Source: Octopus sinensis (taxonomy: Eukaryota). From it: a DNA stretch of 8,483 bases. The translations under genes were made by a program, and so were the position numbers. This document shows positions 1,175 to 8,483 of this stretch, piece by piece. Position 1 is the first letter of the stretch. Each line of letters opens with the position of its first letter. A model generated the notes under the pieces. The model had not been told where the DNA came from, made no database searches, and saw nothing but the letters and a program-made list of their open reading frames with translations. The stretch spans positions 1 through 8,483 of the forward strand of contig NW_021828426.1 in assembly GCF_006345805.1 (NCBI RefSeq), given 5' to 3'.

Positions 1175-1936
1175 ATGCGTCAGGTGGCACTTTCTAGGGA
1201 AGAATTGGAAATTATCAAAGAATTCAAGTCCAATGAAGAGGATTTGAGTGTCTTCGATAACAAGAGCAAGTTTCAGCGAATGCGGCTTAAGAGAATAGCC
1301 AGATCAATTGTCTTTAAGGATGTTGTAAGACCACGGGCCCCTTGGGTACAGGGACAAATAGAAAGATGTTTTCTGCATTAATTAATTTTAGATTTAATAA
1401 GAGTGTAAAAGGTTGGATTTCCTCCACCAGTGAATCAAAAATTGTTTTGGACGTTATGTCAATATTATCAAAGATATTGTCGAGGATTATAATTACACTA
1501 TTCACTCGACGACAAGGCAGATACCTTTCTTTCTGTTTATGGGAATCAAGAATTGCAATTCAGTTAGTGAAACACATCGAAAAGAGCTTATGGGGCATAA
1601 CAGTGATGATACAGAAAAAGAGGTTTTGGAAAATGACAGTGATGACGAACTTGAGAAAAAGAGAAATGAAGCTTTCAAAAACTTTGTCTCTTGCGGTATA
1701 AAAATGAATAAAAAAGAAAATGGAAAAACGATGAGGATAGGCCATCAGAAGGCGATCTTGTACTTCTACGTACAGATAATGACACCAATCGGCCAAGATA
1801 TCCGTTATATGAAGGAATTGATTCCAGCAAACACAAGATCATCAGTGTGAAAAACAATCAGTATTTTTTAGAAGGAGAAAATGGTGAGATTGTACCAAAT
1901 GTACACATCTCAAGATTTAAAACAATTAAGAAATAA
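1175..1936 (+). pseudogene. Internally deleted and frameshifted integrase/transposase gene of the Ginger-like element
   Basis: Stitched reading: N-terminus MRQVALSREE...RMRLKRIARSIVFKD, then directly RPRAPWVQGQIER (catalytic-Glu motif, cf. xPxxxGxxER) / FNKSVKGW (after removing 1366-1391) / frameshift near the A-run 1437-1441 / NCFGRYVNIIKDIVEDYNYTIHSTTRQIPFFLFMG (YNxxxHSTTxxxPF core C-terminal motif) / frameshift near the A-run 1710-1715 / EGDLVLLR...VHISRFK (integrase C-terminal-domain-like), ending at TAA 1934-1936. The HHCC zinc finger and the two catalytic Asp motifs are missing, implying a deletion at about 1320-1325. Confidence 0.8.
1366..1391 (+). other. Putative 26-nt intron (AT...AG as written) in the integrase gene
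   Basis: Removing ATGTTTTCTGCATTAATTAATTTTAG joins GAA AG + A TTT AAT AAG = E-R-F-N-K, restoring the GQIERFN motif and bypassing a stop. It is AT-rich, ends TTTTAG, and matches the size class of the host introns. The donor is non-canonical. Confidence 0.55.
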
Positions 1937-2446: not shown

Positions 2447-2484
2447 TTAAATTTTGTGAGTCAATTATTTATTCGCAATAATAA

Positions 2485-3757
2485 CACAGGAAGAGGTTGA
2501 AAGGGCAATTGCTGGGTTGAAGAACAAGGCGCCTGGCTTTGACTACATCCCTCCGAAGTTGTTAAAGAAGGCCCCTGAAATCTTGATACGAGCATTGACT
2601 ATGTTGTTTCACGCCAGCTGGACGTTCGGACACCTTCCATCGGCGTGGAAGCATACGATTGTTCGAATGATTCCAAAATCTGGTAAATCGACACTGCTGG
2701 CACAGAACTACCGGCCAATTAGCCTCATTTGTGCTTTCTCTAAGACAATGGAAAAGATTGTCTTTAACAGACTCTCTGGTCATATAGAATCACAAAATTG
2801 CTTTTACCTGAACAATGGGGATTTCGTGGAGGAAGATCCACAGGGGACTGCCTCAGGGAGTTAGAGCACCAATTATCCCGTGCTGACAGAAATGAAGCAT
2901 GGCTAACTGTGGTGTGTCTGGATCTGGCCAAAGCCTTCGATAGCGTGTGGCACCTGGGCCTACTCTCCAGAATCCATGACATCGGAGCCGGGATAAAGAC
3001 CTATCGATGGCTGGAGAGCTTCTTGTCAGGAAGACAATCATTTGTCCGCTGTGGAAACCGCCTATCGGGGTGTGTGGAACTTAGAAGGGGAGTCCCGCAG
3101 GGATCTATCTTGAGTCCACTTCTGTTCAACCTCTTCTTGGCGGACATTCCTCTGCCGTCGACACGTACTGGCAAGCTCGTTATCTATGCTGACGATATCC
3201 TGGTCATGGATACCTCGAAAAGGATATCGCAGTCTTGGAGACGACTGAAATCATACATTGCAACGCTAAAGATGTGGACTATAGAGAAGGGTTTGACCCT
3301 AGCACCGGAGAAGAGCACCATTTCATGGTTGCGGAGAGGGAGTCGCTATGCGGAGTCTTGTGCATATGCGATGAGTAGCTATGTGATGGATCTCTCGAAA
3401 AGAAAAAATCTTTCTTACCTGGGAGCAACCATTAACTGTCGTGGCTCGTACGTAGAGCATATAGCAAATCAGAGAAAGAGGAGTGTGAGGATCCTCAAAA
3501 GCTTAACCAGGTTCCATCTGGATCCGGAAACGTACATCTACGTATACAAAACGTGTGTGCAGCCAGTCCTCACATATGGCTACGAGGGCTGGTACGGTAC
3601 GGAGGAGAGTGACTACCTGATCGAACAGTTGGAAAAGACAAGACGTTTCGCTATGAAATTGGCTTACGGAGTACAACTTGACGGAAGGCTAAAAGACTCA
3701 CAAGAATCCTCTGTGCCCACGATCCGGATGGTCTTGGAGAATTGTCGTCAAACATGA
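2485..3757 (+). pseudogene. Reverse transcriptase domain of LINE-A (5'-truncated, one frameshift)
   Basis: Motifs KAPGFD, IPKSGK, YRPISL, Q(W)GFR, DLAKAFDSVWH, GVPQGSILSPLLF, YADD, YLG. ORFs 2517-2864 and 2798-3757 are joined by one missing base at the A4 run 2794-2797. Stop TGA at 3755-3757. No endonuclease in this copy. Confidence 0.92.
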
Positions 3758-3892: not shown

Positions 3893-4034
3893 TATTCGCA
3901 ATAATAAGATTTTTGTGTTGATTTAGTTATAATCGTTTTCACTAAAAAATTTCATTTAAAATTATTTTTTATAATACAAAAATTTTAATTTATTATTTTT
4001 AATTAATAAATAATAAAATTTATAATAAATTATT

Positions 4035-4889
4035 TTAAAATAAATTAAATTTATTTTCTTGTTGTAGCATTCTAATATTCTCCAACTCTGAATAATTCTT
4101 TTTCAATTTATTCTTCATTTCCATTATCTATAATGAATTAAATGTTTAATACAATATTTAAATCTTTCTTTGCCTCATTCAATGATTCATACACGTTAGA
4201 ATGCCTTTTATTTATTATTTTGTTATTAAATTCACGAAGTTCCTCTGTAATCTGTTCCACATCTTCAGCCCTAAAAAATGATAAAAATTTTCCCGCCTTT
4301 TTCTTTCTTTTTCCATCAAATCAAAAGCCGAAAAATTTTTCTTAGCCACTATCTGGTCTAAGTGACTGTTCTTGGCCTAAAAGTATTTTTTTACCAATTT
4401 TTATTGGAATTTGGGTATTTTGGTGGATTTCGTTTTTTAAATGTTTCAAAAAACTGTCTAAACCTGAAGAATATATTTTTTTAAAATCTGAGTCCAGTGG
4501 GTTTGATCTAAGACTTAAATTTTTTAAATTCGGTAAAAATCCTGTCTGTTTTTTGATGTAACAAAAACCGTATGAGTTGGGAATTGAAGTCAGGACGTTT
4601 CGGTCGAGAAGAAGTGTGTTGAGGTCACACTCTTTTGGCGATTGGACCAAAGGTAGTTGAGATATTTGATTGGCGCGAAGATCAATCCAAAGAGCTTTTT
4701 GGAGGGAATCGAAAAATGAATTTGGTAATATTTTTAGATTGTTTTTTGATAGATTTAAGAACTTAATTATTTTAAAATAATTACTTTTATGTTTTTTATA
4801 TTTAGGAGTTCTTTTGGAATTTCTTTTAGTTTGGAATTAGATAAATTGACTCTATTTTCATTATATAGGTCATATGCTTTAGATATCAT
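4035..4889 (-). CDS. Leucine-rich-repeat plus coiled-coil protein, LRRC27-like (spliced; about 5 micro-introns)
   Basis: Model: ATG at 4889; introns 4762-4784, 4542-4568, ~4377-4394/4395, 4271-4296 and 4128-4152; stop TAA at 4035-4037. Product MISKAYDLYNENRVNLSNSKLKEIPKELLNIKNIK|FLNLSKNNLKILPNSFFDSLQKALWIDLRANQISQLP...LNTLLLDRNVLTSIPNSYG|FLPNLKNLSLRSNPL...SGLDSFLKHLK, then a charged coiled-coil-like tail ending ...MLQQENKFNLF. The repeat order and motifs (FF..L..L.W(L/I)DLR.N, LLL(E/D)RN, GL...L..L) recall LRRC27 from memory only; no symbol assigned. The 3' half of the model is less certain than the LRR half. Confidence 0.72.
4128..4152 (-). other. 25-nt GT-AG micro-intron
   Basis: GTATTAAACATTTAATTCATTATAG. 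Removal skips an in-frame TAA and opens the final exon IMEMKNKLKKNYSELENIRMLQQENKFNLF*. Confidence 0.75.
4271..4296 (-). other. Putative 26-nt GC-AG micro-intron
   Basis: AAAG|GCGGGAAAATTTTTATCATTTTTTAG|G. Removal gives DLMEKERKR-AEDVEQITEELREF, a continuous coiled-coil-like sequence. Confidence 0.55.
4377..4394 (-). other. Probable micro-intron with ambiguous boundaries
   Basis: GTAAAAAAATACTTTTAG (18 nt, GT-AG) looks intronic but leaves the frame heading to a stop at 4342-4344. The downstream open frame is reached by a 19-nt GG-AG version (4377-4395), a 37-nt GT-AG version (4358-4394), or the 18-nt intron plus a 1-nt indel in the T5 run 4398-4402. Confidence 0.45.
4542..4568 (-). other. 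27-nt in-frame GT-AG micro-intron
   Basis: GTTTTTGTTACATCAAAAAACAGACAG. Removal deletes 9 residues and restores normal LRR spacing (LTSIPNSYGFLPNLKNLSLRSNPL). It contains no stop, so retention cannot be excluded. Confidence 0.7.
4762..4784 (-). other. 23-nt GT-AG micro-intron
   Basis: GTAATTATTTTAAAATAATTAAG. Removal joins two LRR-coding frames (LLNIKNIK|FLNLSKNNL) and skips a TAA. Confidence 0.85.
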
Positions 4890-5184
4890 CACAAGATTGG
4901 TAACTTGGTAATATTTTATTTATTTAATTAAAATTTATTAAAATATAATATTTTATTAATATAATAGAATTAAAATTAATATAGTTTCTATTTTTTGTAT
5001 CAAAAATGTATAATAAAAAACTAGTATTAATATACAGAATTCAGAATTCTTATTTCTCAATTAAACCATTAATATAAATCTAAATATTTATAATTATTTA
5101 TAAATATATATTATATTTTTATAAATAATAAATAAAGAATTTATTGACTAATACGTAGCACCTTGTTGTGCATGTCAGGTCAGG

Positions 5185-5223
5185 TTGATTCGGTGTGGAG
5201 ATGTGGAACAAAACCCTGGACCT
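5185..5223 (+). other. 2A-like ribosomal skipping (stop-go) peptide LIRCGDVEQNPG/P
   Basis: Exact match to the D(V/I)ExNPG-P consensus (GAT GTG GAA CAA AAC CCT GGA CCT, 5200-5223), in frame with and immediately upstream of the APE domain. Confidence 0.88.
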
Positions 5224-8200
5224 GAGCCTATTAGAACACTAACCATCCTTCAATTGAACATCAACGGGATTTCCAAGAAATGCAATGACCTACGCTACTT
5301 TCTACACACGAACTCTATTGATATAGCTCTTATTCAAGAGACCAAACTTACTCCAAAATCCCAAACCCCCCGTTTTAAGGGATATTCCACCATTCGTCGT
5401 GACCGCCAGTCTGGAAAGCCTGGCGGTGGTCTCATTACTCTCATTCACGAGGCCATTCCCTTTGCAGACTCAACTGCCAACATTGAATCTCTCTTAACTA
5501 ATGATCGATTTACCGAAATTTCATCTATTCAAATTAACATTAACAAGATATGTTACTCTGTTGTTAACACATATATCCCCCCGATTTCGTCATGTGCTCC
5601 CAATTATACACCGAACTTACTGCCTCTTTTTTCAATTGAAAACTGTATTCTATGTGGCGACTTCAACGCCCACCATCCTCTCTGGTTATCCACAAACAAA
5701 ACTGACAAACGTGGCCAGCAAATCACAACGGATGCGGAAGAATTGATCACTCTAAACAACCCTCTTCTACACACCGCTGTGCAATGCGACCTGGAGATTC
5801 AAACACTTCTCCTGACATTACCTTATGTTCCCCAAACATCGCCCTCGACGCCAAATGGACAGTTCTGTACGACCTACCAACGGACCACAATCCTATTCTA
5901 ATCAAAATAAACCATCACCCTGTAAAGAAGAGAATTACGAAGACCTACATTAACTACAAACGTGGGAAATGGGACTCGTTCAGGAGTGAAACTGAACGTA
6001 TATTCAGTAATTTTTCTTGCTCCTCCATTCAATCATTTGACGCTGCCGTTGCTTTCTTTACTAGTACACTTCTTTCTGCGGACAAAAAATTTATTCCCCG
6101 CGGCTTCATCCGAAATCACGGCCTCCACTTCCCCCCACCTATCATTGAACTATTCAAAAAACGAAGGAGGATCAAATCGACGACTTCTATCAATGGAAAT
6201 GGAGAATCTCTAGCAGAAATCAACAAACAAATTGACGAATTAATCAAGAAACATAAAACTGACGAATGGAATGATTTTATCACTTCAATAACCCCAAATA
6301 CTGGATCCCGTGCTTTCTGGAGAACCCTCAAGAAAATTCACACGAGGCAAACATGTCCCCTCTCACATGCCACCGGTATCTCGACCAAAAAATCTGTCCT
6401 ATCTTTCCAGGATCAAGCCAACATCTTAATTCGCCATTATGCAAAAATCAGTCACCTTCCTACCCCAAAGGATCTCCGTTTCGTAAGAAAATCACATTAT
6501 AAGTCAAATGACAATTCTACTGACTATATTAACATCCCAGAATCATTTACCAGGCAACTTGTTGTTAACTCGCGGAATTCTAACGCCAGAGGTCCTGATG
6601 GCCTTGCCATCCACCACTTAAAAAATCTGGGTCCTAATGGCTTTCTGGCTCTGACCAATCTAATCGAATACTCGATCAACCATGGTCTGGTTCCTATGCT
6701 TTGGAAGAAATCTACCATCATCCCTATCCCAAAGCCAAATCGTGATACCTCTGACCCCTCCTCTTTTCGACCTATCTCTTTGATCTCAGTGGTTTCAAAA
6801 ATAACAGAGCGAGTTGTATTGAGCATCATAAAACCTTTCCTCCCATTTGCTGAATCTCAACATGGCTTTCGTTCTTTGCATTCCACTTCCACCCATCTTT
6901 CAAAACTGACACAATTCATTGCGGATGGGTTTAACAATCATAAGCCACCTCAAAGAACAATTATTGCATCCATCGACATTGAAAAGGCATTTGACAGAAC
7001 GTCAAGACACGTTCTGTGTAGGAAAATAACCGATACGGAATTCCCCCACCAAATAAAGTCATGGCTACTCTCTTTTCTCTCTGGGCGTCTTGGTCGCACC
7101 ACAATCATGTCTTCTTACTCACGCTACAAATACTTGCCTAACGGAGTTCCCCAAGGCTCGGTCCTTTCACCTGCCTTATTTAACTTACATCTGTCAAATA
7201 TCCCGACGAACAATAATACTCTACTTCTCTCCTACGCTGATGACTTAATTTTTGCCTCCCGCCACCAAAACATAATCACCGCTTCTGGATTTCTGCAGGA
7301 ACACATGAACACTCTTTCGTCCTGGCTGAAATGCAATCTTCTTCAACCTTCTCCTTCCAAATCATCTGTTACGCTATTCACAACTGACCGCCGTCAGTTC
7401 AACTTAGAGCCTAAACTATTCCTAGACAACACTCCACTCCCAGTTGAAAAATCCCCCAAAATCTTGGGTCTGATATTTGATTGCTGTTTGTCCTTCTCGA
7501 AACATGTTTCATATATCTGTGGAAAATCCCAGAAAAAATCTCAATGTGCTCCGAGCTATTGCGGGGACTTCATTTGGGCAGGATAAGGAAAGTCTAACAA
7601 CTGTATACAAGCAGTTTATTAGAACAACTATGAACTACGCCATCCCTGCTTGGGGTTCCTGCTTATCTAATACAAACCTTGAAAAACTTCAGAGAACTCA
7701 AAACTCAGCATTACGAATTATTACCGGCTGTCTAAAAACGACACCTACCGACCACCTACATTGGGAATCGAAAATCCTTCCAATCAGTGACCATTTTGAA
7801 ATGCTCGGGCTGCAATTTCTTGACAAATGCCGAACCCTAAATCACCCTGGCTACTTCCTCTGGCACTCCACTAACAACAGGAGAATAGTTCCGACCCTCG
7901 CGGACAAAGTCCGCAAGCTTATACGATCCCCTCCGGACATTAACCAGAAGGGGATTCACGACCTGGTGGCTACGAGGGCAATCAGATGTCTTGGAATAAA
8001 CAAGCTTCTGGGACGCCTTCCGCCGCCAATTAATAAGATCGAATCCTCCCTCTCAAGAGAAGCCCGAGTGAACTTGGCTCGTCTCCGCTGTGGCCACCAT
8101 ACTGGCCTACACGATTATCGCATAAAAATCGGTCTTGGTGAAATAACCCCTTCCTATTCCCTCAACGACCTTTTCTCCTGTCCAGGCCCGCCTTCTACTT

Positions 8201-8313
8201 CCTCGGAACACCGGATCACGATCGGGGATCTTTGGGAGCGTCCGACATTGGCCCTAACGTTCTTGTTAGCCACCGGCTTCCTTCAATTGAAGGGGCCGGG
8301 GGTAAATAAATAA
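5185..8313 (+). pseudogene. 2A-APE endonuclease-reverse transcriptase polyprotein of LINE-B (two 1-nt frameshifts as assembled)
   Basis: APE motifs LQLNING, IQETKL, NTYIPP, GDFNAHH, PDITL, TDHNPI. RT motifs ARGPDG, IPIPKP, FRPISL, QHGFR, DIEKAFD, GVPQGSVLSPALF, YADD, KILG. ORF segments 5185-5901, 5784-7586 and 7477-8313 overlap, with shifts at about 5755-5780 and about 7528-7538. No in-frame ATG upstream of the 2A motif. Confidence 0.92.
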
Positions 8314-8319
8314 ATAAAT
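8273..8319 (+). repeat. 3'-terminal stem-loop plus (TAAA)4 tail of LINE-B
   Basis: CCGGC-T-TCCTTCAA / TTGAAGGG-GCCGG (8273-8299) pairs with one G-U and one bulge. TAAA x4 at 8303-8318 contains the ORF stop (8311-8313). Confidence 0.75.
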
Positions 8320-8483
8320 GGGTGTTGAAAATCCTGGAAGGATTGATGAAGCGGAAATTTACAACTTTTAGCTTATGATTCGACAGGATTATCAAATGTT
8401 CGATAAAGTGCATTAGAAAATTAATAATTGCTGGCAAAAAAAAAAGTTGAAAAAAGAAATTATCATAAAAATAGACATTACAC

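Follow-up and report, generated by a model that had tools for sequence, protein, structure and literature searches.

An LRRC27-like gene with likely miniature U2-type introns and a likely deletion-broken middle on a probable dicyemid contig

Described miniature-intron systems and the present locus

The closest described systems are the dicyemids, animals which inhabit the kidneys of cephalopods (PMC2222250). Intron lengths of Dicyema japonicum, as tabulated in supplement S14 of PMC13644364, have a minimum of 20 nt, a Q10 of 22, a median of 24 and a Q90 of 32 nt. A median of 27 nt is given for Dicyema sp. (PMC6543705), and the introns of D. acuticephalum have a mean length of 26.2 nt and conserved positions (PMC2222250). 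The genome of D. japonicum is described as containing 49% repeats, with many LINE ORF2 copies (PMC6736024). Similar sizes are found in the myxobolids Henneguya salminicola, Thelohanellus kitauei and Myxobolus rasmusseni (medians of 22–27 nt; PMC13644364). According to the same source, splice signals in myxobolids and D. japonicum have shrunk to GTa and AG, the likely branch site being a small number of A residues of weak conservation; U2 snRNA and U2AF are retained in myxozoans. Introns of about 25 nt in Paramecium, 15–16 nt in Stentor and 18–21 nt in Bigelowiella are cited in PMC2222250 and PMC13644364.

The DNA analysed here, referred to as the window, is an 8,483-nt stretch of contig NW_021828426.1 from an Octopus sinensis assembly. 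It is AT-rich and includes an 855-base gene on the minus strand, which has a LINE-type element on either side; a DNA transposon in decay lies further to the left. We consider it probable that this is an LRRC27-like gene, likely of a dicyemid, carrying miniature U2-type introns of 23, 27 and 26 nt, and that the copy in the window has lost about 236 coding bases and is read to a premature stop.

In several respects the locus resembles the dicyemid systems. Its introns of 23–27 nt compare with medians of 24 and 27 nt and a mean of 26.2 nt, their signals are cut down to GT..AG, and they lie in repeat-rich DNA with LINEs; the position of intron 1 may also be an old one. It differs in that one intron is GC-AG and in that the window copy looks deletion-broken; the term GC-AG does not occur in the main text of PMC6543705 or in the supplement of PMC13644364, the two places in which it was sought. 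Lengths of 23, 25, 26 and 27 nt all fall within the dicyemid range of about 20–32 nt, and an 18-nt segment, also proposed as an intron, lies below the annotated minimum. With myxobolids the locus shares the intron size (medians of 22–27 nt), the reduced splice signals and the association with parasites of animals; the myxobolid hosts described are, however, fish. Introns of ciliates, nucleomorphs and microsporidia belong to the same size class, but those described here interrupt an animal-type gene which has no TAA or TAG codons for Gln and which is accompanied by LINEs and a DNA transposon.

An earlier note on this DNA, made from the sequence alone, had regarded the combination of very short introns, a standard code and abundant transposons as unusual. 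This is the published dicyemid state, as in D. japonicum with its median of 24 nt, 49% repeats and LINE ORF2 copies (PMC13644364, PMC6736024), and the combination is therefore not new. The minimal intron-definition spliceosome that the note proposed is a fair inference, and one that has been published for dicyemids and myxobolids (PMC13644364). What the locus contributes is a further instance of a trait already described, a gene of the tiny-intron animals that includes a GC-AG case. It also indicates that a deletion scar can mimic an even shorter intron in such genomes, that ORF callers miss genes of this kind, and that the gene likely flags a parasite contig within a host assembly.

Gene layout and likeness to LRRC27

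The open reading frame of 102 aa called in this region (4650–4342, minus strand, with a TTG start) is, as the earlier note had recognised, only a piece of a longer leucine-rich repeat (LRR) frame. The frame holding exon 2 gives a Pfam LRR_8 match (E 1.9e-6). Read from the ATG at 4889, the frame meets a stop after 40 codons unless the 23-nt segment 4784–4762 is taken out. The features of the gene are as follows.

4785..4889, minus strand: exon 1; 35 codons from a putative start ATG at 4889; first LRR; LRRC27 profile columns 54–82
4762..4784, minus strand: intron 1, likely; 23 nt, GT-AG, phase 0; shifts the frame if retained; absent from X3 and X4 contigs
4569..4761, minus strand: exon 2; 193 nt, LRRs; matches Pfam LRR_8 and the LRRC27 profile
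4542..4568, minus strand: intron 2, likely; 27 nt, GT-AG, phase 1; in the window in frame and without a stop; absent from X4; 26 nt in X1
4386..4541, minus strand: 5′ part of exon 3; last LRR and C-terminal cap; ended by the presumed deletion; profile match to column 186
4377..4394, minus strand: apparent 18-nt GT-AG segment (third proposed intron); likely a deletion scar, a coding GT and A-run joined to 4385–4377
4297..4376, minus strand: exon of 80 nt, not in frame in the window copy; X3, X4 and X5 contigs cover it
4344–4342, minus strand: premature stop of the window copy, in the frame read after removal of introns
4271..4296, minus strand: GC-AG intron (fourth), likely; 26 nt, phase 2; absent from X4 and X5; present in one X3 contig; 25 nt in X1
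4153..4270, minus strand: exon of 118 nt; tail, charged and helical (coiled-coil-like); X4 and X5 contigs cover it
4128..4152, minus strand: candidate, probable intron (fifth); 25 nt, GT-AG, phase 0; 84% AT; retained in an X5 contig
4035..4127, minus strand: probable last exon; stop at 4037–4035; frame open once the 25-nt segment is removed

The intron and candidate intron 5′ ends read GTAATT, GTTTTT, GCGGGA and GTATTA, and all four segments end in AG. The six Gln codons of the LRR part are all CAA and no in-frame TAA, TAG or TGA occurs there, in agreement with the standard-looking code described in the earlier note; animals use the standard nuclear code. A ciliate origin with TAR read as Gln was rejected, since none of the 10 Gln codons is TAA or TAG.

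When the unspliced frame was used in an exhaustive protein search, 803 hits to LRR proteins were obtained. Among the best 150, only the fish protein P0030, aligned over one long piece, led to a named family; its relatives are mostly named LRRC27 or LRRC27-like. Eight further hits were nameless. Two word-indexed protein searches with the unspliced LRR frame yielded nothing among 427 and 14 candidates, a metagenome scan gave one locus at 30% identity and a viral pattern scan gave none. The ESM Atlas returned generic LRR clusters, with no usable hit for the tail, and PDB matches were likewise generic LRR proteins.

Removal of the proposed introns improves these alignments. With introns 1 and 2 removed, residues 20–138 align with P0030 at 36% identity with a single gap position; if intron 2 is retained, a gap of nine residues opens. 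Joining exon 1 gives a better top HSP in 150 of 151 LRR proteins. Taking out intron 2 improves 133 of 151 LRR matches (12 become worse) and all 119 matches in the fish LRRC27 set. A profile was built from these 119 fish proteins (P0152–P0270; a fish-only family set, the best 120 of 199). On its columns 54–186 the N-terminal part of the product scores 82.6 bits without intron 2, with one inserted residue, and 71.6 bits with it. The expectation in the earlier note that homologue alignments would improve on removal is thereby borne out for the 27-nt segment.

The same profile gives 75.2 bits for the best of 150 generic LRR proteins (P0134), 56.3 for the next and a median of 33.6 bits, and in BLAST comparisons 94 of the 119 family members score above the best generic LRR protein. 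The LRR block and cap are therefore collinear with LRRC27 and score above other LRR proteins, and by sequence comparison the gene is LRRC27-like over its LRR part. The likeness includes an LRR block with a C-terminal cap and 35–37% identity over 120–140 residues with 1–4 gap positions; a helical tail follows here too, although its match is not significant. It differs from LRRC27 in being shorter (about 329 codons for the presumed intact form vs 324–637 aa, most 400–480), in its very short N-terminus and in the truncation of the window copy. The earlier note was right to see LRRC27-like repeats followed by a coiled-coil-like part, here a charged helical tail; the tail exon itself reaches a non-significant 3.9 bits (E 1.1) on profile columns 373–433. 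One of the 119 fish models, P0227 from trout, has an insertion of 34 residues at the column of intron 1. The first residue of the insertion is Val and the last is Lys, which is what translation through a GT..AG intron would produce. This suggests that the position of intron 1 may be old and shared with fish LRRC27.

Evidence for the introns in related contigs

Six sequencing runs, none listed as RNA, match the window: X1, X2 and X6 from organism A, and X3–X5, from two studies, from organism B. Contigs of four of the six were aligned to positions 3900–4912 at 80% likeness, X2 and X6 being left out, and differences in the X1 and X3–X5 contigs were counted among the rows listed, to which 19 substitution rows and 3 indel rows would be added in full tables. 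The run type of X3–X5 is not on record; their organism label differs from that of X1, and we treat them as probable assemblies of spliced transcripts.

Three of the five proposed segments correspond to exact gaps in these contigs from a relative, of unrecorded run type. Exactly 23 nt are missing at 4762 in organism-B contigs from both studies (X3, with a depth below 3, and X4), exactly 27 nt at 4541 in X4, and exactly 26 nt at 4270 in X4 and X5, from one study. The gap ends can be placed as GT..AG, GT..AG and GC..AG, respectively. For random gaps of the same lengths, canonical ends arise in 3 of 817 (23 nt), 8 of 813 (27 nt) and 8 of 814 (26 nt) placements, and GC-AG is the sole canonical option of the four placements of the 26-nt gap. 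A reading of the fourth intron as a 23-nt GG-AG segment was rejected, as the actual gap is 26 nt. Because the gaps fall at exact GT/GC-AG ends, the 23-, 27- and 26-nt segments are likely spliced out. A low-depth X3 contig (4145–4376, with two gap letters) retains the 26-nt segment, so that both forms are present in organism B. In the organism-A DNA run X1, 1-nt indels at 4562 and 4288, at full depth, leave the 27-nt and 26-nt segments each one letter shorter; an exon would not tolerate such changes. Together with ends typical of U2-type (major) spliceosomal introns, GT-AG or GC-AG, these comparisons make it likely that all three segments are real U2-type introns.

The earlier note had proposed GT-AG introns of 23, 27 and 25 nt. 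All three segments are present; those of 23 and 27 nt are absent from organism-B contigs, but that of 25 nt is retained in the sole contig spanning it. One of the likely introns, that of 26 nt, is GC-AG and not GT-AG.

This sole organism-B contig across 4152–4128, from X5, retains the 25-nt segment although it is without the 26-nt intron. In favour of an intron, six of its 17 differences fall within the 25 bases (binomial P 0.005; four of the 17 were not located). No listed change affects the GT or AG of the segment, and its in-frame stop at 4140–4138 is not conserved. The last letter of the contig is 4098, which lies exactly 30 letters beyond the acceptor of the segment. A merge with a spliced path in a de Bruijn graph would leave such an end, and a downstream X5 contig is absent from those aligned. 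This end is a weak hint of splicing. From the sequence we consider it moderately probable that the 25-nt segment is an intron.

The interrupted middle, rival readings and neighbouring elements

The X4 and X5 contigs follow the window as far as 4386 and rejoin it at 4373; between these points they contain 248 letters against 12 in the window, with 206 and 79 letters on the two sides. Counting the 248 letters, the coding sequence amounts to 987 bases, or 329 codons, with both halves in register. Since this joint restores the register, the window copy has likely been broken by a deletion, with a loss of about 236 coding bases and part of an intron and a shift of the frame. The 248 letters could also be lineage-specific in organism B, given the 80% likeness and the other organism label. 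No X1 contig with this long form is listed among those aligned to 3900–4912.

An 18-nt intron at 4394–4377, the shortest length given in the earlier note, is not supported, as the organism-B contigs align through 4386 without its removal and then show 248 letters against 12. It was rejected as a frame-restoring intron, since the frame still ends at 4344 when it is removed. The 18-nt segment is likely a deletion scar, one end of which appears to be the remnant of a downstream intron.

An intact functional gene would offer one open frame across supported introns, and the window copy does not. With introns 1, 2, 4 and 5 removed, its frame meets the stop at 4344 after 165 aa, or after 159 aa if the 18-nt segment is spliced as well. 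No combination of GT-AG introns of 18–27 nt (0 solutions from 6 candidates) reaches the final stop, so that the intact product of about 240 aa put forward in the earlier note is not obtained. When GC donors or lengths of up to 45 nt are allowed, 15 to 105 solutions reach it (105 combinations from 28 candidates at 14–45 nt); rescues are thus easily obtained by chance.

The junction itself is present in an 82-nt X1 contig with 0 differences from the window, at a depth of 24.5 against 104 and 179 on the flanks; this contig has 29 letters on one side where 31 were demanded, and X1 may be the window's own source. It ends at 4414, 30 letters past 4385. With 31-letter words, such an end suggests another X1 path which diverges where organism B diverges.

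The pattern of substitutions indicates how recently the window copy was constrained. Of the organism-B differences listed, 23 in number, 13 leave the amino acid unchanged in the spliced frame (P 0.0002 when all changes serve as reference, 0.03 with transitions alone). The five X1 differences listed for the LRR part are all synonymous (P about 0.005, neutral transitions), and at these places organism B shares the X1 letter, clearly at four and mixed at one. As the X1 differences are synonymous and organism B mostly shares the X1 letter, selection acted on the window copy until recent times, and the copy cannot have been dead for long. A young deletion fits this pattern, although a short form that still works would be compatible with it too. 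Constraint is not evident in the tail, where synonymous changes make up 2 of the 7 organism-B differences (tail exons) and 0 of the 3 X1 differences (last exon). These three X1 differences, at 4046, 4070 and 4079, are A-to-G changes on the coding strand; they share one codon phase and are non-synonymous in the last-exon frame. By eye, they occupy third positions of an overlapping 46-aa frame (4102–3962), for which no convincing splice entry was found.

The probable reading builds on four observations: exact gaps at three segments, a joint with 248 letters in place of 12, the likeness to LRRC27 and a stop at 4344–4342. In a lineage that would be dicyemid, splicing would proceed by intron definition on little beyond GT or GC, an A-rich branch stretch and AG, as described for Dicyema and myxobolids (PMC13644364). 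A recent deletion would have fused exon 3 to the last nine bases of a downstream intron, creating both the 18-nt GT-AG look-alike and the frameshift. The window copy would then be a dead allele or duplicate, giving at most an LRR-only product of 159–165 aa or a decayed message, alongside an intact gene of about 329 codons predicted to encode a small LRR interaction domain and a helical tail.

It is unlikely, on our assessment, that the deletion instead gave rise to an intron by pairing a GT of the coding sequence with an acceptor left without its donor, of 18 nt with a selected LRR-only protein or of 37 nt with a 238-aa product. An intron would then have been born through a deletion and observed while still polymorphic, in an animal whose spliceosome needs little besides GT, AG and a suitable spacing; an 18-nt intron would be shorter than the shortest annotated dicyemid intron (20 nt), and a spliced short junction would show how readily introns arise under minimal splice signals. 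We also find it doubtful that the window holds a working, naturally shorter organism-A gene of 238–244 aa, in which a deletion-made or recruited intron restores the frame. Candidates for it exist, a 37-nt GT-AG intron (4394–4358) or a 19- or 28-nt GC-AG intron from 4376, which do reach the final stop; the product would have the length of about 240 aa given in the earlier note, and the five synonymous X1 differences in the LRR part would be accounted for. However, organism-B contigs treat 4394–4386 and 4373–4358 as retained, rescue solutions are as cheap as noted above, most of the X1 depth lies outside the path of the junction contig, and 37 nt exceeds the D. japonicum Q90 of 32 nt. Quite unlikely is an assembly artefact that mis-joined an intact LRRC27 gene. 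The longer form does occur in two runs and no aligned contig spans the whole stretch, but the X1 contig reproduces the junction without a difference at a depth of 24.5, albeit with one side of just 29 letters and in a run that may stem from the source sample.

Two further alternatives concern the lineage and the introns themselves. That the source is a dicyemid is likely from the intron sizes and the animal best match. It is improbable that the introns are real and the source another organism, be it a myxobolid myxozoan, a different parasite with tiny introns or a lineage not yet recognised. The chief alternative is a myxobolid, with medians of 22–27 nt in that group (PMC13644364), and the word-indexed, metagenome and exhaustive protein searches returned no dicyemid sequence or close relative that would label the lineage directly. 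Against this stand the best match to animal LRRC27 with its probable shared intron position, the cephalopod-kidney habitat of dicyemids (PMC2222250) and, for a TAR=Gln ciliate, the absence of TAA or TAG from all 10 Gln codons. It is hardly credible that the segments are not introns, the gaps being genomic deletions in organism B and the window holding frameshifted pseudogene debris. The unrecorded run type of X3–X5 would allow it, but all three gaps have canonical ends, one X3 contig retains the 26-nt segment missing from X4 and X5, X1 tolerates 1-nt indels in two of the segments, and homologue alignments improve on their removal.

Several other elements were observed in the window. The decayed, internally deleted DNA transposon at 1016–2446 has inverted arms of 48 nt (88% complementary), TGTCA termini and TTAAA on both sides. 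Its ORF pieces at 1169–1933 have what we take to be integrase-like motifs, and a Pfam search of them gave no hit. The termini and arm length fit Ginger, and a 5-bp duplication would resemble that of TDD-4/5 rather than the usual 4 bp (PMC2836005). A 26-nt AT..AG segment in the transposase (1366–1391, plus strand) breaks a conserved-looking motif and shifts the frame; the transposon may carry a host-sized intron with a decayed donor. It also includes a perfect tandem array of 18-bp units (2013–2087, 4.2 copies), with TTAGGG-like units. A 5′-truncated, frameshifted reverse-transcriptase element (2460–3757, plus strand) starts just to the right of its right arm. The LINE at 5152–8320 (plus strand) is nearly full length, with endonuclease and reverse transcriptase, two frameshifts and a (TAAA)n tail, and its N-terminus has what is presumably a 2A-like motif, DVEQNPGP. 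Near the left end, in very AT-rich DNA, a GC-rich inverted pair of 28 nt (262–289 and 835–862; 89% complementary, 545 nt apart) perhaps marks the ends of a small non-autonomous element, and a 17-bp tandem duplication lies at 218–253.
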